Shown piece after piece: positions 2,058 through 19,102 of a stretch of DNA of 29,459 nt. The translations under genes were made by a program, and so were the position numbers. This DNA is from a virus, in UHGV virus genome UHGV-0099905, one strand, 5' to 3'. The notes under the pieces are model-generated. The model was not told the origin of the DNA. It was given only the letters and a program-made list of their open reading frames with translations, and did not search any database. The first letter of the stretch is position 1. The number at the start of each line of letters is the position of its first letter.

Positions 2058-2220
2058 CCTTAATCTCCTTCAGTGTGTCCGTGATATCTACTATGCGATA
2101 AATACGACCTCGCCTTTGCATGACACCGGCTTTTACGTAATCGTGGATACAGCTGGACATAACCAGACTTCCGATAACAATGCCGACGACTAAAAATACA
2201 AACATCCAGCCGAGCATCAT
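2041..2220 (-). CDS. Unlisted 59-aa ORF, predicted single-pass membrane peptide (MMLGWMFVFLVVGIVIGSLVM...)
   Basis: Hand translation; ATG overlaps the ligase stop codon (ATGA-type coupling); N-terminal hydrophobic helix. Confidence 0.4.
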   Translation of the reverse strand: MMLGWMFVFLVVGIVIGSLVMSSCIHDYVKAGVMQRRGRIYRIVDITDTLKEIKDDHVK

Positions 2221-3539
2221 TCTTTATCTCCAATACGATCTTCGGTATCTCGAAGACATTTAGGCCACTTCAGACGTGGATGACGCAAGCTACCATCTGG
2301 CGTTTTCTCATGGCAGTGAACCTCAACGATGCGTCCACGATACTTCTCCTGATTGTTCCAGATTTCATCCAGGTATTTATGCTTGATACCGCTGGCACGA
2401 ACGATGACGCCGTTCTCCAGACGAATCACTATCTTGCCTAGCGTATGCGCAAAGCCAGAGTCCGGATCGCCAGGCTCGAAGTCGATGACTTCACCGTCTT
2501 CTGAATCCTCGTCTTTCAGCTTCCACCAGCTGCGGGTACGTTTGAACTCGTAAACTGAATCCGGATCTTTGCCCATCTCTCCCTCTTCATTCTCGTCCAG
2601 TCGCTTCATGAAACGTTCGATGAAATCTTCGTGGCTATGGATGATGTAGAACGGATGAAGGTGGATATCTTGCGCATAATCTTCCACGCAAGTGTTGCGG
2701 AACAACGCCACCAGCATAGCCAGGCGCTCTTTCAGCTTCATACCGGTCTTCAGGTACTCTTTGCTTTTTGCTTGAGCACGCCACTCCGGTAAGAAGAAAT
2801 CGAAAATGTGGTAAACGGCACCAATGGCTTTCACGTTCTTCTTACGAAGCGCCGACACTGACTGGTTGAATGTACCTGCAGTGCCCTCTCCATCGAAGAA
2901 GATGTGATTGAAGCCGGAGAGTCTGCCCCGCTCCAGCATGGCTGGTTTAAGGTGATCGAGTGACGTAATCGGATTGCCGGTGCGCGTCAGGAAATTGACC
3001 TCACCCTCGTCCACGATGACTTCGCAGATAACCCGGAGACCATCGAGTTTGAGACTGCCGATCATTGGCCACTTGGCCTTTGGATTTGGTTTAAATGGGT
3101 ATTTGTCGCCTTTCTCCTTGTACGGAGACGCCAGCTGTACCTCAAACTTCGGAATTGGGTTTTTGAACACCTTGTTGCACAGGCTGATGCCGACACCGGC
3201 TTTCGGATCTTTCAGCAGGAAGCGACGAAACACGTCCTGCCCGTCAGCGCACATCGAGGCAACGAGTGATTCGACAGCAGCAATAGCGATGTTCCCGGTC
3301 AGTTCGCGCGCTGCCAGCTTCTCCAGCAGATCTACTACCTTCTGGTCGCTGGGTACGGAAGTATCGAGTGGCTCGGCCACTTTGTACTTCTTCACACCGA
3401 ATCGAATGAATGGATTGAGCATTAGCGAGACCATGCTCTGTTCAAATTCATCCAGATTGGCCAGCGCCTCTTTCTTGGCGTTGGTTCCCATCGTTTTAAT
3501 AGCATCCAGCTTGTGCTTTAGGGCGATCAGTTTTTCCAT
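2217..3539 (-). CDS. ATP-dependent DNA ligase, phage T7 ligase-like, with N-terminal extension
   Basis: Nucleotidyltransferase motif I KLDGLR, motif V-like RSWWKLK, and C-terminal ETPDGSLRHPR closely resembling the T7 ligase C-terminus (TPDGSLRHP) as recalled. Confidence 0.85.
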   Translation of the reverse strand: MEKLIALKHKLDAIKTMGTNAKKEALANLDEFEQSMVSLMLNPFIRFGVKKYKVAEPLDTSVPSDQKVVDLLEKLAARELTGNIAIAAVESLVASMCADGQDVFRRFLLKDPKAGVGISLCNKVFKNPIPKFEVQLASPYKEKGDKYPFKPNPKAKWPMIGSLKLDGLRVICEVIVDEGEVNFLTRTGNPITSLDHLKPAMLERGRLSGFNHIFFDGEGTAGTFNQSVSALRKKNVKAIGAVYHIFDFFLPEWRAQAKSKEYLKTGMKLKERLAMLVALFRNTCVEDYAQDIHLHPFYIIHSHEDFIERFMKRLDENEEGEMGKDPDSVYEFKRTRSWWKLKDEDSEDGEVIDFEPGDPDSGFAHTLGKIVIRLENGVIVRASGIKHKYLDEIWNNQEKYRGRIVEVHCHEKTPDGSLRHPRLKWPKCLRDTEDRIGDKE

Positions 3540-6729: not shown

Positions 6730-7278
6730 ATGAAACGTTCAGTTATTGCGGCTACTGTATTAGCATCTCTTTTTATGAGCGCAGGATCATTTGCAGCAGA
6801 AGGGAGTACAGAGGGTCAGTTAACTATTAACGGTAAAGTCACAGAGACTACATGTCAGTTCCTGAGCGGTAGTGAGAATACAACAATTTCGATGAGCGAA
6901 ATTGGTCGTGATCAATTTGAAAATGTAGAAGTTGGCTCCCCCGTTACTACTTATTCAAATACAACATCTTTACCACTAAAAGTTAAGTGTACCGGAGGAA
7001 AAGAACCAAGAATTACCTTCTCCAGCACCCAATTTGAAGGAACGGATTCAAATATTATTCGCAATACTGGTGATGCTAGCGGTGTCGGTTTCGCTGTTTT
7101 TTTGGGGAAAGGTACTGATTCTAGCAACCGGATTTCTGGTAATAGACCTATTAAGTTAACACCAACTACTAATGGTGAACATGAGTTACATTTTACGGCA
7201 CAATACGCAAAAACAGCTGTTGATGTGGGTACTGGCGAAGTTAGTTCTGCGATAACAATGACCGTTGTAACAGATTAA
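6730..7278 (+). CDS. Fimbrial major subunit (chaperone-usher pathway)
   Basis: Signal peptide MKRSVIAATVLASLFMSAGSFA, about 180 aa, first in operon before chaperone and usher; AGGA SD upstream. Confidence 0.7.
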   Translation: MKRSVIAATVLASLFMSAGSFAAEGSTEGQLTINGKVTETTCQFLSGSENTTISMSEIGRDQFENVEVGSPVTTYSNTTSLPLKVKCTGGKEPRITFSSTQFEGTDSNIIRNTGDASGVGFAVFLGKGTDSSNRISGNRPIKLTPTTNGEHELHFTAQYAKTAVDVGTGEVSSAITMTVVTD

Positions 7279-7333
7279 CATGATGTTTATCGGCGGCTTC
7301 GGTCGCCGATTTTCAATCGCAAGGATTGTTATC

Positions 7334-8014
7334 ATGAAAAAATTAATAGCCTTCTTACTAACCGTAACGGTCCCATCTGCGTGGGGCGGTGTCTATATTT
7401 ACGGCACTCGCGTTATTTATCCGGAACAGAAAAAAGAGATTGCAGTTCAGTTAATGAATGAAGGTGAGCGTAGTGCTCTTGTTCAGTCGTGGATTGATGA
7501 TGGCGATGCCAGCCTTCCTCCGGAAAAGATTAGTGTACCTTTTGTGCTGACTCCACCGGTAGTTCATGTTAGTAAGGGTGAAGGACAGCAACTGAAAATT
7601 AAACAACTGGCGAACACTCTACCTAAAGATCGCGAAAGTCTGTTCTTCCTTAATGTACTGGATATTCCACCTAATAGTGAGAAATACGAAGGCAAGAATC
7701 TGATTAAATTCGCGATGCAAAATCGTATCAAATTTATTTATCGCCCAAAGGGTATAACAAGAGTCGATAAAGAGAGTTTTTCCCGGATTAATATCAGACC
7801 CGTTGATAGAGGCATTAACATAAAAAATAATTCAGCGAACTGGATAACCATTCCTGAATTAACCGGGAATGCGAAAATTAATAAGGAGACACTACTGCTG
7901 GCACCCTGGTCAGATCAGACTGTCAAAACGACATCCGTTGTTAACTATTACAATGTTACTCTGATTGATGATCATGGAAACTATTTGAGTGAAAAAATAA
8001 AAACTGCCAAATAG
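7334..8014 (+). CDS. Periplasmic fimbrial chaperone (PapD-like)
   Basis: Classic chaperone N-terminal pattern GVYIYGTRVIYPE...; start moved to ATG at 7334 (MKKLIAFLL signal peptide) behind AAGGA, rather than the track start at 7280. Confidence 0.85.
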   Translation: MKKLIAFLLTVTVPSAWGGVYIYGTRVIYPEQKKEIAVQLMNEGERSALVQSWIDDGDASLPPEKISVPFVLTPPVVHVSKGEGQQLKIKQLANTLPKDRESLFFLNVLDIPPNSEKYEGKNLIKFAMQNRIKFIYRPKGITRVDKESFSRINIRPVDRGINIKNNSANWITIPELTGNAKINKETLLLAPWSDQTVKTTSVVNYYNVTLIDDHGNYLSEKIKTAK

Positions 8015-8031
8015 ATTATCAGGGATTGGTT

Positions 8032-10518
8032 ATGTCAAAGTTTAATTCTATTACACTGGCTATTCTGTCAGTATTAGCGACTTCGCATACATGGGCTAAG
8101 GGTGAAACGTTTAATACCAATTTTATGATTGGTGGTTTAAATGGGGAGAAAATTTCTAACTACCATATTGATAGTGATAAGCCGATGCCGGGTATCTACG
8201 CTATGGATGTTTATCTGAATAATCAATGGCGTGGCCACTATGATATTGATATTAAAGATGACCCTAATGCAACATGTTTATCCATGGAGCAATTAAAGCA
8301 AATTGGGATCCTCACTGAAGGAATTAGTATCGATAAAGGCGTAGAATGTGTACCACTTCGGGATGCTGTCCAGGGAGGCAGCGTCGACTATGATATTGGG
8401 CATTTTAACCTAAAATTAAGCGTGCCCCAAGCCTATGTTCTGGAATATGAACATGGCTATGTTCCGCCTGAAGCATGGGATCGCGGGATTAACGCATTAT
8501 ATACATCTTATTATGCCAGTCAGTATTACAGTGATTATAAAAACGGCGGAGATGATAAAAGTAGCTATCTAAATCTGAACAGTGGGTTAAATCTCCTGGG
8601 CTGGCAGCTGCATTCAAATGCCAATTATACGAAAAGCGACGAAAACAGCGGTAAATGGAAGAGTAACACGCTATATCTGGAACGTGGAATTCCACAAATT
8701 CTCGGCACGTTTCGCGCAGGTGAAATGTATACTGGTTCTGATGTTTTTGACTCCGTGCGTTTTCGCGGCGTGCGCCTTTGGCGCGATATGCAGATGTTAC
8801 CGAACTCTAAACAGAATTTTACTCCTGTGGTACGCGGCGTTGCCCAGAGTAACGCACTCGTCACCATAGAACAAAATGGTTTTGTGGTTTACCAGAAAGA
8901 AGTACCGCCAGGCCCATTCGCCATTGATGATTTGCAACTTTCTAATGGTGGGGCAGATTTGGAAGTTATCGTCAAAGAAGCTGATGGTTCAACGTCGTAC
9001 TATCGGGTGCCTTATTCATCGGTGCCAAATATGTTGCAACCTGGCGTTTCTAAATATGAATTTTCAGCCGGACGTAGTCATATTGAAGGAGCCAGCAATC
9101 AATCTGATTTTATCCAGGGAAGCTATAAGCATGGTTTCAACAATTTGCTGACAGGTTATGGCGGCACGCTGTTATCTGATAATTACTCATCGTTTGTTCT
9201 TGGAACAGGATGGAATACACCGATTGGTGCTATATCGGTTGATTTTACCCATTCATACAGCAAGCAAGACAACGGTGATGTGTTTAACGGTCAAAGTTAT
9301 CAGATTGCCTGGAATAAATATCTCTCTCAGAGCGGAACACAATTTTCTCTGGCGGCCTGGCGTTATTCCTCTCGGGGTTATCGTACTTTTAACGATCATG
9401 TATGGGCAAATAACAAAAATAGATACAATCGAGAAGACAACTCAGGCTATGACATTGCCAACTACTACCAGTATGATTTTGGTCGCAAGAATAGCTTTTC
9501 TTTAAATATCAACCAGTCATTACCGGAAAATTGGGGGTATCTGGCGATCAGCGGTCAATGGCGAGATTACTGGGAACGTAGCGGGACAGGGAAAAATTAC
9601 CAACTAAGCTATACGAACTCATGGGAACGTCTAAGTTATACCTTGTCGGTTAGCCAGACATACGATGAGGATAACAGCGAAGACAGACGCATTAACTTAT
9701 TTTTCTCAATCCCCTTCTCGTGGCGTGATAATATCACCGAAAAACGACGAGATTTATTTATCTCTAACTCGACCACATTTGATAAAGACGGCTACCAGTC
9801 AAATACTACCAGCCTCAGTGGTGTAGCTGGGAACCGTGATCAGTTCAGCTACGGGGCTAACTTTAGCCATCAACAACAGGACAGCGAAGCAACAGCAGGT
9901 GGAAATCTGATTTGGCGTGCGCCAGTGGCTACCATTGGTGGCAGCTATAGCCAGTCGAAAAAATATCAACAGATAAGTGGTAATATTCAAGGTGGTTTAG
10001 TCGCGTGGTCAGACGGGATAGCACTGGCTCCCAGACTTTCAGATACATTTACCATCGTCCATGCTCCGGGGCTGGATGGGGCTGCGGTACAGGGGTATCG
10101 TTACCTGAGCACGGATAGCCGAGGTTACGCTATTTATGACAGCCTGACGCCGTATCGTAAAAACACGTTGATGCTGGATACTTCTGACAGTCAAAGCGAT
10201 GTGGCACTACTGGGCAACCGTAAAAGCACCGCTCCTTATCGTGGGGCCGTTGTGATGACGCAGTTTGATACTGACAAACGTAAACCCTGGTATTTCCTTG
10301 CTCAGCGCCCGGATGGTTCTCCATTATCGTTCGGTTATGAAGTTGAAGATGAAAGCGGTAAGAATGTGGGCTTGGTAGGACAGGGAAGTCGGATATTTAT
10401 TCGCACTGATGATGTTCCCGCATCGATTCGCGTCTCGGTTAATAAACAGCAGGAACAATTCTGTACTATTACCTTTGATAAAGTTATCGAAGAGAATAAA
10501 GTTTATATTTGTCGTTAA
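8032..10518 (+). CDS. Fimbrial outer-membrane usher
   Basis: About 830 aa, signal peptide, usher N-terminal FNTNF motif, beta-barrel-type composition; ATG at 8032 behind AGGGA. Confidence 0.9.
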   Translation: MSKFNSITLAILSVLATSHTWAKGETFNTNFMIGGLNGEKISNYHIDSDKPMPGIYAMDVYLNNQWRGHYDIDIKDDPNATCLSMEQLKQIGILTEGISIDKGVECVPLRDAVQGGSVDYDIGHFNLKLSVPQAYVLEYEHGYVPPEAWDRGINALYTSYYASQYYSDYKNGGDDKSSYLNLNSGLNLLGWQLHSNANYTKSDENSGKWKSNTLYLERGIPQILGTFRAGEMYTGSDVFDSVRFRGVRLWRDMQMLPNSKQNFTPVVRGVAQSNALVTIEQNGFVVYQKEVPPGPFAIDDLQLSNGGADLEVIVKEADGSTSYYRVPYSSVPNMLQPGVSKYEFSAGRSHIEGASNQSDFIQGSYKHGFNNLLTGYGGTLLSDNYSSFVLGTGWNTPIGAISVDFTHSYSKQDNGDVFNGQSYQIAWNKYLSQSGTQFSLAAWRYSSRGYRTFNDHVWANNKNRYNREDNSGYDIANYYQYDFGRKNSFSLNINQSLPENWGYLAISGQWRDYWERSGTGKNYQLSYTNSWERLSYTLSVSQTYDEDNSEDRRINLFFSIPFSWRDNITEKRRDLFISNSTTFDKDGYQSNTTSLSGVAGNRDQFSYGANFSHQQQDSEATAGGNLIWRAPVATIGGSYSQSKKYQQISGNIQGGLVAWSDGIALAPRLSDTFTIVHAPGLDGAAVQGYRYLSTDSRGYAIYDSLTPYRKNTLMLDTSDSQSDVALLGNRKSTAPYRGAVVMTQFDTDKRKPWYFLAQRPDGSPLSFGYEVEDESGKNVGLVGQGSRIFIRTDDVPASIRVSVNKQQEQFCTITFDKVIEENKVYICR

Positions 10519-10528
10519 AGGATTTTTT

Positions 10529-11539
10529 ATGAAGAAATATTGGTTTTTGTTTTTGTTGATTATTCCATTTTTTGGGCAGGCGAAATGTACCCCTAAGGGA
10601 ACTTGGACAGCAACTCAACCAATTACACTGGACTTAACAACGGATTCAACAATAGTAAGTTTTAATCCCAACCTGCAAGGATCTTATGAATGTAACTCGA
10701 GGGGGGATAAGATGTATTTTGCAACAACGTTAGATGACTATATTGTTGAAATGAAAGATGGCTCCAGCAATAAGTCTATTTTTATTAAATTAAAGCTTGA
10801 GGCTGATGGATTTCCTGTAGAAACGAGTGGTTCGCTTCTGTCGCCTAAAACCTATTCTGTTGCTGATACCATTAATAATAAACAACTGAAGTTAACGGCC
10901 TCATATATACCACCAACTAAATATAGAAGTGATCGTGGTGAAGCGGTAGAGGGGGATTCATTCGAATTGAAAAAAGCGGCGGCTAATTTTTTGTCTGATA
11001 ATACATGTAGTTCAAATATTCTTTCATGGATAGCATGCTATGTTTTTGGATTGTTAAATAAAGGTGAAGCTTACGAACAAAAACTAACCATTAATGTTAA
11101 ACACAAACCCACAACCTGTCGTTTCTCGCAACCGACTTACGAAATAAGAATACCAGAAACAACGATAAGTGAAATGCTATCTGCCAATAACTCAAAATCA
11201 GGTTCTGTAGATCTGGTCCTAAATTGCGATAGTGTCTATAACGTCACGACTAATCCAGTGACTTTTAAAGTTGAGCGTGGTGTGTGGGATGATAGTGGAA
11301 CAATATTGAAAAATACATTGTCCGATGGTGCTAAGGGTGTAGGGTTCCAGATTTACAATGGTAATGCAACGACACCGTTAAAGCTGGGCGATACCCTGAT
11401 GAACAGATTACCTAAAATGGCGGCTATTCAGGAGCAGTACATCTTCCCGATTACCGCAAAATACGTTCGCGTGAAAGAGGAAGCTTTACAGCCTGGGGAA
11501 GTTCAAGGCCAGGCGATATTTGCCGTATCCTACGACTAA
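10529..11539 (+). CDS. Fimbrial minor subunit / tip adhesin candidate (two-domain size, about 337 aa)
   Basis: Signal peptide MKKYWFLFLLIIPFFGQA starting at ATG 10529 after SD AAAGGA; the track start at 10409 overlaps the usher and is rejected. Confidence 0.6.
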   Translation: MKKYWFLFLLIIPFFGQAKCTPKGTWTATQPITLDLTTDSTIVSFNPNLQGSYECNSRGDKMYFATTLDDYIVEMKDGSSNKSIFIKLKLEADGFPVETSGSLLSPKTYSVADTINNKQLKLTASYIPPTKYRSDRGEAVEGDSFELKKAAANFLSDNTCSSNILSWIACYVFGLLNKGEAYEQKLTINVKHKPTTCRFSQPTYEIRIPETTISEMLSANNSKSGSVDLVLNCDSVYNVTTNPVTFKVERGVWDDSGTILKNTLSDGAKGVGFQIYNGNATTPLKLGDTLMNRLPKMAAIQEQYIFPITAKYVRVKEEALQPGEVQGQAIFAVSYD

Positions 11540-11717: not shown

Positions 11718-11945
11718 GTGTTTATGCAATCTATTAACTTCCGTACCGCACGCAGCAATCTTACCGAAGTGCTCAACAATGTTGAAGCCGGAGAAGAGGT
11801 TGAAATCACCCGTAGAGGCCGTGAGCCAGCTGTAATTGTCAGCAAGGCCACTTTCGAAGCCTACAAAAAAGCGGCGCTGGATGCTGAATTCGCATCCCTG
11901 TTTGACACTCTGGACACCACCAATAAGAAACTGGTTAACCGATAA
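11718..11945 (+). CDS. phd: Phd antitoxin (P1-type)
   Basis: [64 protein letters not shown]... is near-identical to P1 Phd as recalled; overlaps doc by TAATG. Confidence 0.9.
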
Positions 11946-12322
11946 TGAGGCATATATCACCGGAAGAGCTTACTGCAATTCATGATGCGAATATAAGCCG
12001 CTACGGCGGCCTGCCAGGCATGTCAGATTCGGGAAGAGCTGAGGCTATTATCGGGAGAGTCCAGGCCAGAGTTGCATATGAAGAGATTACCGACCTTTTC
12101 GAAGTCTCCGCAACTTACCTGGTGGCTACTGCGAGAGGGCATATATTCAATGATGCCAATAAGCGTACCGCGCTAAACAGTGCGTTGTTATTTCTGCGCC
12201 GTAACGGTGTGCAGGTATATGATTCACCAGAACTGGCAGAGCTTACTGTGGGGGCTGCGACCGGAGAGGTATCCGTATCTACTGTCGTTGCCACGTTACG
12301 TAGATTGTATGGTACGGCGTAG
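11945..12322 (+). CDS. doc: Doc toxin (Fic-fold kinase, P1-type)
   Basis: MRHISPEEL...[26 protein letters not shown]... matches P1 Doc as recalled, including the Fic-like HxFxDANKR motif. Confidence 0.9.
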
Positions 12323-12455: not shown

Positions 12456-13640
12456 TCAAACTAATGCAGCTATGCCTTTTACCTTGCTTAAAAGTTCAAG
12501 CTGTCGTGAATAAGGTTTTGCGCAATAGTAGGCTTTGATAATCTGCCCCGGTGTCGCATCGCCGGGATCGAGTCCTTCCTCGCCCAAACACGCTACTTTG
12601 ACATTAAGACCGATACTGGTCAGTCGCCTGGCTGCGGCCATCGTGTTGCGTATAGCTTGCTTTTCACTATCCCACATCATAATCACATTACGTAATCCAC
12701 GCGCCTTGAGCGTCAGGAACGCGCCCAACTGATCTTCTGCATCCTGAGTGGTGTTACCAGATAGATGCATCCCGAACGTTCCTATCGGTTCCACGTAATC
12801 GCGTAATGTTTCTTCATCAAAAATAGCTCGTTTAACCCCCATAACATCGAACGCCCCCTCACAGACAACTACAGTCTGTTTGCCGACTGCATTGTGGCCG
12901 TTGTAGAGAAATTTACCCGATGCTGGCAGCTGCATGGGGAACAGATACCGGCGTTCTGCTGCACCGGTAATGTCACGACCCTGGAAGGTCTTCATCACGC
13001 CATCCAGATCGTAAACCGGTATCAGTATTCGCATATCGAATACCTGTCCTTTGACCTGGTCTGTGTACGGATCGACGTATGCGTGCTTGCCTTCGACGCA
13101 GTAACGCAGATCAAAGTATTTGGCCAGCTCCGGGGAAATCTGGCGCTCCACCAGATAATCAGGAAGACGACCGTCAATGGGGAGTTCGTAATGGCGCGGG
13201 AGAGCTACCGGTCCTTCCAGTTCAACCTTGCTGGCCAGCACGATCTCTTCCTTCTTCGGCGCCCAACCTTGTGAGATCAGCGCGTTCTGGACGTACTCTT
13301 CAAAATCGCGACGGGATTTGCCGCTGTAATGCTTTAGGAAGACCAGCTTATTGAACTGAATCTCTTCGGGATGATCACCTGCAAAGCATTTGCCGACACC
13401 ACTGGTCAGGTTGAAATAAACCTTCCAGTTTGAGCTGCCGCATACCGGACACTCTTTAATGTTGACCTCTCGTCCGCGAGTACTGACTCCACCATGACGG
13501 TAGATGATCCCTTCCATATCGAGCCATTGCTCAAAATCCAGCTCGGTCAGTAATTCTTTCAAGTCGCTCACGTTCTTACCCCTGTTTTTTGCAGGTAATA
13601 TCTTGATAAGCCTCGGTATTTGAATACCATAAAGGCTCAT
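12456..13640 (-). CDS. DNA primase (zinc-ribbon N-terminus plus TOPRIM-like core)
   Basis: CPVCGSS...C...H zinc-binding pattern and acidic TOPRIM-like segment VVVCEGAFD; start placed at ATG 13640 (MSLYGIQ) rather than the upstream TTG of the track. Confidence 0.6.
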   Translation of the reverse strand: MSLYGIQIPRLIKILPAKNRGKNVSDLKELLTELDFEQWLDMEGIIYRHGGVSTRGREVNIKECPVCGSSNWKVYFNLTSGVGKCFAGDHPEEIQFNKLVFLKHYSGKSRRDFEEYVQNALISQGWAPKKEEIVLASKVELEGPVALPRHYELPIDGRLPDYLVERQISPELAKYFDLRYCVEGKHAYVDPYTDQVKGQVFDMRILIPVYDLDGVMKTFQGRDITGAAERRYLFPMQLPASGKFLYNGHNAVGKQTVVVCEGAFDVMGVKRAIFDEETLRDYVEPIGTFGMHLSGNTTQDAEDQLGAFLTLKARGLRNVIMMWDSEKQAIRNTMAAARRLTSIGLNVKVACLGEEGLDPGDATPGQIIKAYYCAKPYSRQLELLSKVKGIAALV

Positions 13641-13694
13641 GTGTTTTTTCTTTTGTGGTTTTGGCAAAAGAGAAATTTGTTCTCTTCTGGAGAC

Positions 13695-13729
13695 AGGCGT
13701 GGAGAGTGTTTCCCCACGCCTTCTTTTTT
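13695..13729 (+). terminator. Plus-strand-oriented hairpin plus T-run, between minus-strand helicase and primase genes
   Basis: AGGCGTGG / CCACGCCT 8-bp stem followed by TTCTTTTTT on the plus strand; on the minus strand an A-run precedes the hairpin. Confidence 0.4.
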
Positions 13730-15068
13730 AGAGGACGTCCATAATGCGTTCGATGAATCGCATTTGTTCGAGGTTCTGCTTAACGCGGATGCTTACGCCG
13801 CCTTTCTGGTTACGTGAACCAGCGAAGTAAAGACGCGCTTCGCCTTTCGCTTCTTCTTCTTCCGTTTTGTTGATAGTGATAACGAGGTCAGCGATACGCA
13901 CCTTCTCGATGTTGTCCGCTGCGTGCATCATTGTAGCCACCTCAGAAGCGCCACCTTCTCTGTTAGTCTGCGATGCCGTGATGCCGGCAACGTTGTGTTT
14001 GTCGTACAGCGCACGCAGGTCAGTGTAGATGCTGCGAATGTTAGCGCGGTCGTCGCGGAGGTCGTAGCTGGCACGCATCAGGTCAGCGTAGTCGACCACA
14101 ACCATATCGGGGACCATACCGTTGGCTTTCATGCTGCCCAACATACGGTCCAGATCTGCGGGCGACATGCTTCCGGACGGTCGTTCAACAATCCACAAAC
14201 TTCCCACGCCTTTCGTCGCACCCAGCTCCGCCAGTTTGCGATGGACGTCATCGCGACGTTCCACCAGCCTGGACATTTCGGTCTCAGACAGACGGGCGTC
14301 AAAGCGATCTGACAGAATGGAGGTGTGAACTTCCAGCGACAGATACAGGACGTTGTAACCGGCAAGCGTGGCGTTGATGGAAAACTCCCCCATCGCCGTC
14401 GATTTACCAGACTTAGCGAAGCCCATAAACAGCACCATTTCACGCTTTGCCCAGCCTTTCTGGTAAAGCAGTTTGTCGAGCAGCGGGAGGCCGGTAGTGA
14501 TGCTGTTTGGCACGTAATCGTCGGACGCTTCGTACTCACGGGCCTTGTAACGCTCCGCTGATTCTGCGAAGTAATCGTAAATGCCGGTCGCTTCGTTAGA
14601 GCCAATTTGCTGGACCTTAGCCATGATTGCCATCGCGCCCTGGAAATCGCCCTTCTCTTTCATCTCAGCCGCTTTAATTAGCGCATCGTCGAACGCTACG
14701 CTTTTAGCAAATGTCGCGACCTGGTCGACCATGTACGCCGTATCTGACAGCTTCTCAGCGAGAATGCGCTTAAACGCCTCAACAACGTCAGGGAACAGCT
14801 CTTCGCGGATCGTCTTATCGCGTTTGGCGCGTTTGAGCATGTCGAGGATGGCTGATGATGATGGTGCGCTCTTATACATTCTGTAGTAGCCCGACACCAT
14901 GTTAACCAGAATGGAGTTAGCCGCATTAGAGAACTGGTTTGGGGCAACCAGATCGCCTGCGCGAGTCAGAAACTCATGGTCGCGACAGAAGTAGGCAGCG
15001 AGTCTATTCTGGAAGTCGTCGTCGAACTCTTCAGACAACCCTCGTCCTGTGTGGCAAAGTTCGGTCAT
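13728..15068 (-). CDS. Replicative DNA helicase, DnaB family
   Basis: Walker A GFAKSGKST, RecA-like C-terminal domain with DnaB-type motifs; 446 aa; diverged from host DnaB. Confidence 0.8.
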   Translation of the reverse strand: MTELCHTGRGLSEEFDDDFQNRLAAYFCRDHEFLTRAGDLVAPNQFSNAANSILVNMVSGYYRMYKSAPSSSAILDMLKRAKRDKTIREELFPDVVEAFKRILAEKLSDTAYMVDQVATFAKSVAFDDALIKAAEMKEKGDFQGAMAIMAKVQQIGSNEATGIYDYFAESAERYKAREYEASDDYVPNSITTGLPLLDKLLYQKGWAKREMVLFMGFAKSGKSTAMGEFSINATLAGYNVLYLSLEVHTSILSDRFDARLSETEMSRLVERRDDVHRKLAELGATKGVGSLWIVERPSGSMSPADLDRMLGSMKANGMVPDMVVVDYADLMRASYDLRDDRANIRSIYTDLRALYDKHNVAGITASQTNREGGASEVATMMHAADNIEKVRIADLVITINKTEEEEAKGEARLYFAGSRNQKGGVSIRVKQNLEQMRFIERIMDVL

Positions 15069-15128
15069 GTGCTTTCCTTTGGTGCTTAAACAATTTGTTT
15101 TCTAATACTAAAAAAGCCAGATAGGGGA

Positions 15129-15854
15129 TCAACAGAATCGCCGTGCTTCTTCCAGTTCTTCCGGGAAGTGCGCGTAAATCACACGCTCAGGCACGATTTC
15201 CATCAACCAGACAGCGGAGAAGATGATACGGATGCGTTTATCTCGGGTAATGCCACGCAGACGCTCCAGAATCCACTCAAAATAGCGTTCCTGAATCGGG
15301 TCACGCTGCATGTCTCCAAGATGCTTAAAACTCACCAGAGAGTCATCCAGACGGGTTACAGCGCGTTTGGCTAACTTCTCTTCGAATATCTCGATCAACT
15401 CGGGCTGCCAGAGATGCTGGGGGCGCGGTAATTTGTCCCACAGCCGTCGTGCAGCTGCGGAAAGAACGGTGGAGATAAAGTAGTCGTATGAGCAGCAATA
15501 GCGGTCAGCAAACTGGCGTGCTTTCCAGAGCGACGTTTTGTTGACCGTCGACAACTCCTGATATGGCACACGCTTCAGACCGGTTGTGAATGGAGCCGTC
15601 TCATAGTGTTCACGACCATGCGACAGCATGATGTATGAGTACTGGCGCTTGTATGCCTCAGTGAAAAGGCATGTGGCCATAAGTGGGTGCATGTCGCGGT
15701 AATCAAACCACTTCGTCTCGAAGAGTTCAGCCTCGTCTTTACAGCGCGACAAACCAATGTTTTCAGCGACCCACTTGTCCATAACAGCGGTATTCCACTC
15801 TGTCATGAAATCGTACTGGTCATTGTCGATAGTGTTGAAGAAGATCTGGCTCAC
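15129..15854 (-). CDS. Hypothetical protein (241 aa), first gene of the helicase-primase operon
   Basis: ORF in track; GTG start at 15854 behind AAGGGA; motif copy immediately upstream. Confidence 0.55.
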   Translation of the reverse strand: MSQIFFNTIDNDQYDFMTEWNTAVMDKWVAENIGLSRCKDEAELFETKWFDYRDMHPLMATCLFTEAYKRQYSYIMLSHGREHYETAPFTTGLKRVPYQELSTVNKTSLWKARQFADRYCCSYDYFISTVLSAAARRLWDKLPRPQHLWQPELIEIFEEKLAKRAVTRLDDSLVSFKHLGDMQRDPIQERYFEWILERLRGITRDKRIRIIFSAVWLMEIVPERVIYAHFPEELEEARRFC

Positions 15855-15866
15855 ATGATTCCCTTT

Positions 15867-15890
15867 AATAGGTATGTACTTACTTATCTA
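15867..15890. promoter_or_regulatory. Motif copy AATAGGTATGTACTTACTTATCTA
   Basis: Near-identical to the copy at 24921-24944 (21 of 22 aligned positions); directly upstream of the replication operon. Confidence 0.55.
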
Positions 15891-15991
15891 AGTGAGCGAA
15901 TCATAGCGACTGGAGATATTTTTGGGAAGTGGAAACGGAAGGGAGTTGTTCTGGTGGGTGTCTTTTAAAAGACCTGCTTCCGTATATATTT

Positions 15992-16006
15992 AATAAGTTA
16001 CTTATT
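15992..16006. promoter_or_regulatory. Palindrome AATAAGT-T-ACTTATT in the AT-rich region upstream of the GIY-YIG gene
   Basis: 7-bp perfect inverted repeat with 1-bp spacer, same half-site as the other motif copies. Confidence 0.45.
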
Positions 16007-16136
16007 ATTTATATACAGAAACAGGCATAACTTGTCGTCTTAGACACCCAGAAGCTCTACACTTTGAGCCTGTAAAATTGATTAAAAACTTATGTGTAAA
16101 ATAGAACGCATTAGTCAGTAGCTAAGAGATGCAATA

Positions 16137-16904
16137 ATGGACGATTTATCGGTATACGCGAGATCATTGGATAAGGCTAAATACTATGTTTACTGTCTCT
16201 ATGATACAGAAGACAAGATGAAAAGACCGTTTTACATAGGAAAAGGCAAATCGACTCGTTGTCTCGATCACATCAAGTATCCCGATGACTCTCCCAAATC
16301 CATGCGGATCAAAGAACTTTTGGCTAATAAAAAATTAGGCATAGATATTCTTCGTCATGGTATGGATGAAACCACAGCCAAACTTGTTGAGGCGACATGC
16401 ATCGACCTTATGGGTGTCGGAGAGCTTACGAATAAGGTACGAGGAAGTGGTTCCATGATGGGCAGAATATCACTGGACGCCTACCATCACTTAGTGCTGC
16501 AAGAGGAAACTGAAATTGCTCCTGAGCACGCCGGTCTTGCCTTCCTGCTAAACAGCACCTACAAGTCAGGAATGTCCGCTCTGGCATTATATGAAGCTAC
16601 GCGTGGCGTATGGGCAAAGGTTCCAAGAGACGAGAATCTCAAATATGCCTACGCTACATATGGGGGCCTGATAATGGAAGTTTATCAGATTGAATGCTGG
16701 GTCAAAGCCGGTTCTCAGCAGTACTTTACAAGGGATATAGCTCTTGGCCCCGACACAAAACGTTATGAATTTGTTGGCAGAATAGCCGATGAGCATATTA
16801 GAAAACTGTATGTAGGCAAATTAATCAAGAAGCCACCAAGCTACGGCAGCCCTTTTGTGAAGGTTGGGGTGGTTAGGAATGAACATAGTGTTAGCGCGGC
16901 ATAA
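16137..16904 (+). CDS. GIY-YIG nuclease-domain protein with uncharacterised C-terminal domain
   Basis: N-terminal KYYVYCLYDTEDKMKRPFYIGKGKSTRCLDH fits the GIY...YIG...R...H pattern with a downstream Glu; about 170-aa C-terminal region of unknown fold. Confidence 0.6.
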   Translation: MDDLSVYARSLDKAKYYVYCLYDTEDKMKRPFYIGKGKSTRCLDHIKYPDDSPKSMRIKELLANKKLGIDILRHGMDETTAKLVEATCIDLMGVGELTNKVRGSGSMMGRISLDAYHHLVLQEETEIAPEHAGLAFLLNSTYKSGMSALALYEATRGVWAKVPRDENLKYAYATYGGLIMEVYQIECWVKAGSQQYFTRDIALGPDTKRYEFVGRIADEHIRKLYVGKLIKKPPSYGSPFVKVGVVRNEHSVSAA

Positions 16905-16920
16905 AGCTGACACTGTACTT

Positions 16921-16959
16921 ATGCATTGGCGCGTACATTGCGCCAATGCATAATTTTTA
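16921..16959. terminator. Bidirectional terminator between the convergent GIY-YIG gene and the partition operon
   Basis: 12-bp perfect inverted repeat ATGCATTGGCGC-N7-GCGCCAATGCAT followed by AATTTTTA. Confidence 0.6.
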
Positions 16960-17316
16960 ACCTTTCTTCATCAACTCTCGTTTGATTTCATCGGTACGCA
17001 TCGTGACATCGGCAGCTGTGATCGCCTCGTTAAGTTTCACGATGTCCTCGATTTCCTGCGGTGACTTCTCTGCCAGATGGAAAATGGCTGCGCGAATCAC
17101 GTCAGAACGGGTGAACTTCTCGAAACGAGGGATGAACTTCATCATTTCCAGCAGTTCGAAGTATTCGTCCTCCAGTGACATTGTGCGGCTTTTAATTTTC
17201 TCTTTGCCACGAGTCGGGCGTCCCTGTGGTCTGACTGGTTGGCGCAAAGGAGTTGTGTTCTTGGCCGGTGCATCAGGCTCTTTGCGCTTTGCTAGGTCAC
17301 CCATTTTCATGGACAT
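16957..17316 (-). CDS. Putative partition adaptor / centromere-binding protein (small, basic N-terminus)
   Basis: 119 aa directly downstream of the ParA gene; K/R/P-rich N-terminal tail then helical domain; assignment by context only. Confidence 0.4.
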   Translation of the reverse strand: MSMKMGDLAKRKEPDAPAKNTTPLRQPVRPQGRPTRGKEKIKSRTMSLEDEYFELLEMMKFIPRFEKFTRSDVIRAAIFHLAEKSPQEIEDIVKLNEAITAADVTMRTDEIKRELMKKG

Positions 17317-17984
17317 TATTCTTCTTCCTCCAGACTCAACAGATAATCTACAAATTCTTCAAACTCGGCTTCCGCCTTTTTGTCGCGCTCGCTACCGGTC
17401 ATTTCAAAGATAGAACGACCAGACTCTTCCGCATCATCATAGACGTTGCGGTTATATAAATTGACTGGCGCAGACTCGATGCCAAACGTCTCGACAATCT
17501 CTTTAGCCGCCAAAATGCGAGACACTTGTGATGGCAAAGCCGGGCACTGGTTCATGACCGCGCGGACCTTCACTTTATCGTTTACATTACGAACATTGTC
17601 GATAATAGGATCGATGTCACGCAGAGATTTCAAATCACGACGCTTAGGACGAAGCGGGATAATGATAACGTCGGCCATCAGCATCGCTTGTCGCTGAATT
17701 TCGGAGTCAAAGCCACCAGCATCTACCACTACAAACTCAGCTCTACCCTGAAGCGATTTTAGGTGCTTAATGATGTCATCCTGAACGTATGCAAAAGGAA
17801 TCAGCTCAAGGTCTTCGTTCTGTCGACGGTCTTCACACCAGCTTGTTGTCGTGCGCTGAATATCTATATCAGTGATATAAACCTTCTTCTTCTTTTTGAC
17901 TTTCAGGCAAACGGCAATTTGCTGGGCAACAGTGGATTTGCCAGGCCCGCCCTTTGTGCCGCCAACCACAAAGATCTTGGTCAT
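17316..17984 (-). CDS. parA: ParA/Soj-family partition ATPase (small type)
   Basis: Deviant Walker A VVGGTKGGPGKST; 222 aa, typical of small ParA/ParF-like ATPases. Confidence 0.8.
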   Translation of the reverse strand: MTKIFVVGGTKGGPGKSTVAQQIAVCLKVKKKKKVYITDIDIQRTTTSWCEDRRQNEDLELIPFAYVQDDIIKHLKSLQGRAEFVVVDAGGFDSEIQRQAMLMADVIIIPLRPKRRDLKSLRDIDPIIDNVRNVNDKVKVRAVMNQCPALPSQVSRILAAKEIVETFGIESAPVNLYNRNVYDDAEESGRSIFEMTGSERDKKAEAEFEEFVDYLLSLEEEE

Positions 17985-18303: not shown

Positions 18304-18573
18304 ATGTCCGCACTGAAAAAGCAGCGCATCGATTTGAGATTAACCGATGACGATAAAAGCATCATCGAGGAAGCTGCCGCAATGTCTAACCAGAGCATTA
18401 CCCAGTTCATGGTTAGCAGTGCATCCGAACGTGCCGTGAAGGTGATAGAGCAACACCGTAGACTGGTTCTAAGTGAAGAGTCCTGGAATCTGGTTATGGA
18501 TGCTATAAGCAATCCTCCGGCACCGAACGACAAGCTGAAACGAGCTGCCAATCGTCTGAAAAGCATGGAGTAA
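18304..18573 (+). CDS. tacA: DUF1778-type RHH antitoxin (TacA-like)
   Basis: 89 aa; RIDLRLTDDDKSIIEEAAA...QFMV...AISNPPAPNDKLKRA pattern typical of the family; followed 8 nt later by a GNAT gene. Confidence 0.8.
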   Translation: MSALKKQRIDLRLTDDDKSIIEEAAAMSNQSITQFMVSSASERAVKVIEQHRRLVLSEESWNLVMDAISNPPAPNDKLKRAANRLKSME

Positions 18574-18580
18574 TTTACTC

Positions 18581-19102
18581 GTGAGCAATACGACGATCGA
18601 GATTTTCTCTGGAGAGAAAGATTATGATCTAAACGGTTTTGATTGCGGCGAAGAGTCACTAAACGCATTTTTGACCAACCACTTAAAAAGACAGCATGAA
18701 GGAAAAATTCTTCGCGCTTATGTGCTTTGCACTAAAGAAGAAATACCAAAGGTATTAGGTTATTACACTTTGTCAGGCAGCTGCTTTGAGAAAGAAAACT
18801 TACCTTCAAAGAGTCAGCAAAAGAAAGTGCCTTATCGGCATGTCCCAAGTATCACTTTAGGCAGACTGGCTTTGGACAAATCTCTTCAAGGTCAGGGGCT
18901 TGGCTCAATGCTTGTAACTCACGCAATGCGTGTTGTGTACAATGCATCTCTTGCGGTAGGCATTCATGGGCTTTTCGTTGAGGCGTTGAACGATAAAGCC
19001 AGGGCGTTTTATAAAAGTTTGGGCTTTATCCAGCTGGTTGGTAACAACGATCGTTCTTTGTTCTATCCAACAAAATCTATCGAAAAATTGTTCGAAGAAT
19101 AA
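18581..19102 (+). CDS. tacT: GNAT-family acetyltransferase toxin (TacT/AtaT-like)
   Basis: 173 aa GNAT fold pattern (LGYYTLSGSCF..., QGQGLGSMLV) paired with a DUF1778 gene; GTG start. Confidence 0.8.
   Translation: MSNTTIEIFSGEKDYDLNGFDCGEESLNAFLTNHLKRQHEGKILRAYVLCTKEEIPKVLGYYTLSGSCFEKENLPSKSQQKKVPYRHVPSITLGRLALDKSLQGQGLGSMLVTHAMRVVYNASLAVGIHGLFVEALNDKARAFYKSLGFIQLVGNNDRSLFYPTKSIEKLFEE

Follow-up and report, generated by a model that had tools for sequence, protein, structure and literature searches.

The plus-strand gene at 16137..16904 of the window, by which we denote the whole 29,459-nt stretch of viral DNA analysed here, encodes a protein of 255 aa that, judged by its homology, is a divergent member of the known PD-T4-3/CMoRE defence family, with a predicted activity. 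Probably, this protein is a CMoRE-like enzyme which restricts phage DNA containing modified bases. The gene is carried in an exchangeable cargo slot between the replication and the partition module of the window, which by its similarities represents an SSU5-like phage-plasmid of E. coli. Among the three roles considered in the preliminary description, i.e. a free-standing homing endonuclease, a nuclease of defence or anti-defence, and a replication or recombination nuclease, both the PD-T4-3/CMoRE homology and the cargo slot thus favor the defence nuclease.

PD-T4-3 (Vassallo et al. 2022, as referred to in papers citing that study) was later characterised and renamed CMoRE, with representatives from E. 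coli ECOR68, APEC O1 and O157:H7 and the structures 9U7U, 9U7Z, 9U75 and 9U8D (Liu et al. 2026, PMC12923530). CMoRE is a type IV endonuclease that needs 5hmC or glucosyl-5hmC in its substrate and leaves DNA with C or 5mC uncut (PMC12923530). It guards E. coli against T2, T4 and T6 by direct defence and not by abortive infection, is weakly active on phages with arabinosylated DNA, and forms a tetramer, arranged as a dimer of dimers, with the interface residues V92 and L96 (PMC12923530). A homologue from Capnocytophaga, PD-T4-3Capno, which is 48% identical to PD-T4-3, is likewise a modification-dependent nuclease, and mom-modified Mu DNA is also cut by this enzyme (PMC12366544).

The open reading frame proposed earlier is real. 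It begins with an ATG, is preceded by a Shine-Dalgarno-like AAGAGA at 16124-16129, 7 nt 5' of the start, and is under purifying selection, with 8 synonymous and 2 non-synonymous differences between the window copy and that of phage PhiR41_1 (dN/dS 0.07, based on small counts). As had been described, a minus-strand module lies on either side of it, and no other gene between these modules is on the plus strand. On the replication side (12456-15854) these comprise a primase-like ORF (12456-13667), a DnaB-like helicase (13728-15068) and a 241-aa ORF (15129-15854), and on the partition side (16957-17984) a 119-aa ORF (16957-17316) and ParA (17316-17984). The corresponding RefSeq entry, WP_001711193.1, is labelled either as "LEM-3-like GIY-YIG domain-containing protein" or as "hypothetical", and a literature search by accession returned no mention of it.

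The assignment to the PD-T4-3/CMoRE family is based on several types of comparison. The PADLOC PD-T4-3 model (PDLC04031) matches aa 11-231 over profile positions 11-238 (E 1.3e-23), and with 228 of its 256 positions covered the match is full-length. The protein also matches PHROG 5356, a family of unknown function (E 7e-100), while an NCBIfam profile search gave no match. In a phmmer search against the PDB the only sequences matched are those of the four CMoRE crystal structures, with 9u7u and 9u75 at E 2e-15 (aa 12-230 for 9u7u_A). A family profile built from 42 homologues matches these structures with E 2.7e-23, and hhalign to CMoRE gives a probability of 99.3%. The AlphaFold2 model of the protein (pLDDT 82.6) has 9u75 and 9u7u as top Foldseek matches (E 5e-12, probability 1.0); owing to the flexible linker (aa 95-108), its global TM score is low. 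Thus, the C-terminal part, in which no known domain had been recognised, is in fact included in full-length matches to the CMoRE structures. At the sequence level the relationship is distant, with 32% identity over 237 columns in BLASTP. In an exhaustive search of cluster representatives, 1782 clusters reach E<=1e-3, of which 632 also reach E<=1e-10 and 58 reach E<=1e-30; identity declines continuously, and most of the matches are about 245-260 aa long. The family is thus large, and the window protein stands comparatively far from its crystallised members. That the characterised enzymes are not the nearest relatives of the window protein, and share only 32% identity with it, counts against the CMoRE-like reading.

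The catalytic domain is encoded at 16137..16448 (+), and its GIY-YIG signature, recognised already in the preliminary description, is supported by Pfam PF22945 with 30.1 bits (cutoff 27). [quoted passage not shown] This third tyrosine is also found in the window protein, which shows Y17-V-Y19 and Y33-I-G along with the catalytic R41 and E85. For the comparison we took the native numbering of CMoRE as the PDB chain numbering minus 5, an offset that was accepted because all four tyrosines named in the CMoRE paper then land on tyrosines. On this basis Y17, Y19, Y31, R39, E93 and N105 of CMoRE align with Y17, Y19, Y33, R41, E85 and N99 of the window protein, all of which are invariant in the alignment of the 42 homologues (50-79% identity). 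Hereby, every CMoRE residue proven essential by mutagenesis aligns with an invariant position, so that the window protein shares with PD-T4-3/CMoRE not only the single-gene organisation and the length of about 250 aa but also the complete catalytic Arg, Glu and Asn set, and nuclease activity can be predicted. With regard to the tetramer residues, V92 of CMoRE aligns with the conserved V84 and L96 with C88, a residue that does not vary within the subfamily; a similar oligomeric state is possible by analogy.

The two proteins differ in a loop that is central to the safety of the characterised enzyme. Most CMoRE members contain an acidic autoinhibitory insert (DDDE) between alpha2 and alpha3, which measures 15 residues in CMoRE itself, and neutralisation of its charges in the 4A mutant results in cleavage of ordinary DNA and toxicity (PMC12923530). 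In the window protein the alpha2-alpha3 segment comprises 12 residues vs 19 in CMoRE and is thus 7 residues shorter; the loop itself reads Y-P-D-D-S-P-K (Y48-P-D-D-S52), with 2 acidic and 2 basic residues and a net charge of about 0, and spans only 5 residues in the AlphaFold2 model. The subfamily has on average 3.0 acidic and 2.2 basic residues in this segment. Judged by the alignment, a negatively charged autoinhibitory insert of the CMoRE type is therefore absent from the window protein, which counts against the CMoRE-like reading. One could hence imagine that the protein is a less specific, toxic DNase acting by abortive infection, which is restrained by another factor and freed upon infection. 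While the shortened lid with its net charge of about 0 and the behavior of the 4A mutant would fit such a role, CMoRE and PD-T4-3 act by direct defence, the cassette contains no partner immunity gene, and over 100 plasmids stably maintain the gene with 98-100% identity, so that we regard an abortive nuclease as very unlikely.

The C-terminal domain (aa 109-244; 16461..16868, +) is homologous to the modification-sensing domain of CMoRE, to which it is 34% identical. [quoted passage not shown] The position of Y127 maps to a gapped stretch which is variable within the subfamily of the window protein and thus provides no conserved counterpart, another point that counts against the CMoRE-like reading. 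The 42-homologue alignment reveals an invariant insert specific to the subfamily, N139-STYKSGM-146, and a conserved C-terminal tail, R/P-S-x-G-x-P-F-V-x-V-G, both of which set the window protein apart from CMoRE. It is therefore conceivable that the protein belongs to the same family and uses the same mechanism but senses another hypermodified base, e.g. momylated adenine, arabinosyl-hmC or another phage modification, and consequently acts on another set of phages. The low identity of the sensing domain, the unconserved surroundings of Y127 and the invariant insert all speak for such a shift, as does the plasticity of the family: PD-T4-3Capno, which belongs to the same family as the window protein and shows that a distant homologue may still be a modification-dependent nuclease, differs in also cutting mom-modified Mu DNA, and CMoRE acts weakly on arabinosylated phages. 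Due to this plasticity, the modification sensed by the clade cannot be assumed. As a separate explanation we consider a different specificity unlikely; within the CMoRE-like reading, the chance that the preferred modification differs from that of CMoRE is below even but considerable.

According to the original study, neither sequence nor structure revealed homologues of the CMoRE sensor domain (PMC12923530). With the model of the C-terminal domain as query, weak but consistent similarity is found to ASCH domains, to YTH domains (Mmi1, YTHDC1, YTHDF), to EVE proteins (THYN1 bound to 5mC DNA, PH1033, Rpa0253), to the N-terminal domains of McrB and to the 5hmC-dependent VcaM4I; YqfB and the N-terminal domains of Lon and ATP sulfurylase are matched as well. 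A Pfam search at E<=10 across the 42 homologues shows no consistent EVE, YTH, ASCH or SRA signal in this domain. The steady recurrence of PUA-like folds suggests that the CMoRE-type sensor may be a very divergent PUA-like reader; given that the scores are weak and that the query is itself a predicted model, we treat this as a lead only. Such an architecture would parallel VcaM4I (EVE-HNH), the McrB N-terminal domains and the MspJI/SRA class, i.e. type IV systems which join a PUA-like reader to a nuclease, but these rely on HNH or PD-(D/E)xK nucleases in place of the GIY-YIG domain of the window protein and show no detectable sequence similarity to it.

Taken together, a CMoRE-like restriction of modified phage DNA probably accounts best for both domains. 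According to this model the enzyme would be made while the phage-plasmid resides in its host as a plasmid. The C-terminal domain would bind hypermodified bases in the DNA of an invading phage, which in analogy to CMoRE are most likely the 5-hydroxymethyl- or glucosyl-hydroxymethyl-cytosine of T-even-like phages, whereupon the N-terminal GIY-YIG domain with its catalytic residues would cut the DNA. Host and phage-plasmid DNA, being unmodified, would be spared, so that no partner methyltransferase would be needed, and the phage-plasmid would thereby exclude competing virulent phages.

The genomic context points in the same direction. The locus is 100% identical to many plasmids of about 106-113 kb typed as IncFIB/rep_cluster_488, the window is 97% identical to the Escherichia phages CMS-2020a and PhiR41_1, and tail genes are found near the locus. 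The gene is part of a variable cassette of about 930 bp (16026-16952/16958) between the replication and partition modules, which is present in 107 of 5426 complete E. coli genomes and is plasmid-borne every time. With this location the gene differs from PD-T4-3/CMoRE, which is chromosomal. The rep-to-parA region of the window is matched by 732 PLSDB records, only 124 of which cover at least 80% of it. In the other records homology ends at 16025/16026 and restarts at 16953-16959, and the slot is filled by unrelated cargo in either orientation. The occupants found in place of the GIY-YIG gene are a DUF2971 protein (PADLOC candidate PDC-S31, E 1.9e-40), KAP-family NTPases in two versions of 39% mutual identity (PADLOC candidate PDC-S49, E 3e-24), a 352-aa protein without family match, a gene pair of 135 + 254 aa with marginal matches only, and a 225-aa protein from Shigella sonnei, again without family match. 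An empty slot was not observed in 40 sampled records spread across the ranking.

A fixed slot with exchanged cargo argues for a cargo or defence hotspot that is swapped by recombination in the flanking conserved genes, and not for homing. A free-standing GIY-YIG homing endonuclease would propagate by insertion of its gene at cognate sites in related phage-plasmids, and presence/absence polymorphism at this position had been put forward as a sign of such behavior. The window protein does have the catalytic fold and the catalytic residues in common with I-TevI-type homing enzymes, and equally with UvrC, SLX1 and LEM-3; these proteins differ from it in accessory domains and biology, and only the catalytic core of about 90 aa aligns. 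The Pfam search of the 255-aa protein returned the GIY-YIG domain only, with no NUMOD or other I-TevI-type DNA-binding module, IENR1 and HTH modules are missing as well, and the C-terminal domain is a CMoRE sensor domain. Moreover, the polymorphism consists in the swapping of unrelated genes, with no empty site among the sampled records, and in Providencia and Shewanella close homologues stand alone on the chromosome in unrelated surroundings. We therefore consider a homing endonuclease highly improbable.

The position between the replication and partition modules could also be taken as a sign of a housekeeping nuclease, active in replication, recombination or resolution, or of an anti-defence factor. 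However, the gene occupies the slot in only about 124 of the 732 plasmid records, with unrelated genes elsewhere, and its homologues are lone chromosomal genes. Since most related phage-plasmids do without the gene, a replication or recombination role, as suggested initially, can hardly be maintained, and we assign to this group of functions the smallest probability of all. In support of the defence reading, a survey of phage-plasmids that relied on automated screening reports PD-T4-3 calls for E. coli and Shigella elements of the SSU5 group; no description of the rep-par slot as a hotspot was found in that survey. A partial copy of the cassette on the 142-kb plasmid NZ_CP107722.1 (3501-3658 of the locus) consists of its last 158 bp, i.e. 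the 3' end of the gene and the hairpin downstream of it, and starts about 50 bp past an IS26 transposase gene; it was set aside as probably a remnant truncated by the adjoining IS26.

The left edge of the slot is marked by a large palindrome on the minus strand (15973..16025), whose two arms of 26 nt each (15973-15998 and 16000-16025) are 85% complementary. In the preliminary description part of this element (15992-16006) had been viewed as a copy of a motif and as a private promoter of the gene, and neither view holds. The palindrome is larger than assumed, and a scan of the window for its strict core yields a single site, with near-matches no more frequent than expected by chance, so that the idea of a recurring operator motif was dropped. 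In an alignment of eight phage-plasmids with six kinds of cargo, Klebsiella elements included, the outer arms are conserved in all eight, reading CCTGCTTC(C/T)G / C(A/G)GAA(A/G)CAGG (also given as AGACCTGCTTC(C/T)G ... C(A/G)GAA(A/G)CAGG), whereas the AT-rich centre varies. Similarity between the elements stops directly after the right arm, so that the 5' region of the gene (16026..16136, +) is specific to the cassette. Because the palindrome is conserved whatever the cargo or its orientation, it must be regarded as a backbone element and not as a promoter belonging to the gene. In line with this, neither a tool-based nor a laxer scan of 15960-16136 revealed a convincing sigma-70 promoter at the palindrome or within 16026-16136, where only weak -10/-35 elements are found; this negative outcome counts against the above model. 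On the minus strand the palindrome forms a hairpin of -27.6 kcal/mol (z -6.4) with UCUUUUAAAAG (UCUUUU) behind it, which makes it a candidate minus-strand terminator or insulator in front of the rep promoter region. As such it may stop minus-strand transcripts that read in from the par side or start in minus-strand cargos; it may also serve as a rep operator or origin element. A second, imperfect palindrome (15855-15904, 24-nt arms, 71% complementary) lies directly 5' of the 241-aa rep ORF, shares the core TTTAATA(G/A)GT...ACTTA with the large one and could be a rep operator.

Behind the gene lies an intrinsic terminator inside the cassette (16919..16953, +), with a stem of 14-15 bp, a folding energy of -24.5 kcal/mol (z -5.6 vs shuffles) and a UUUUU tract on the plus strand, encoded as TTTTT. 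A U-tract is missing on the minus strand, so that of the bidirectional terminator proposed before only the plus direction is borne out. An Rfam search over the whole window found nothing.

If the assignment is correct, a gene which over 100 sequenced E. coli phage-plasmids carry under the label "hypothetical" or "LEM-3-like GIY-YIG" gains a testable antiphage function. Phage-plasmids with this gene would guard both the host cell and themselves against virulent phages whose DNA is hypermodified, which would be of relevance for phage therapy against strains harboring such plasmids. The divergent sensor and the short safety loop would offer a comparison for how CMoRE-type enzymes choose their substrates and avoid self-damage, and the clade could supply a reagent with a new modification specificity. 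Likewise, the rep-par slot appears worth mining for defence genes, with the unannotated occupants (352 aa, 225 aa and the 135 + 254-aa pair) as candidate new defence genes. Tentatively, one may go further and propose jointly that the clade of about 246-255 aa, with its short lid and own sensor motifs, forms a distinct CMoRE specificity class, that the slot is a hotspot for defence cargo and that the sensor may be PUA-like, a combination that is possible, if on balance questionable.

Further genes in the window belong to the accessory content of the element. Just beyond parA, a TacA-like antitoxin (DUF1778, Pfam TacA1 3.5e-26) and a GNAT acetyltransferase toxin are encoded at 18304-19102. On the other side, a Fic/Doc toxin is found at 11945-12322, upstream of which a Phd/YefM antitoxin is annotated in an identical plasmid, so that two addiction modules flank the rep/par core. 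The region 6730-11539 holds a chaperone-usher fimbrial operon as cargo, with a YehD-like subunit, chaperone, usher and adhesin as annotated for the identical plasmid NZ_CP010244.1. Finally, a fragment-like ORF with a methyl-accepting chemotaxis signalling domain (51-1004, MCPsignal 3e-44) and a protein with an ATP-dependent DNA ligase domain (2217-3539) are encoded near the start of the window.
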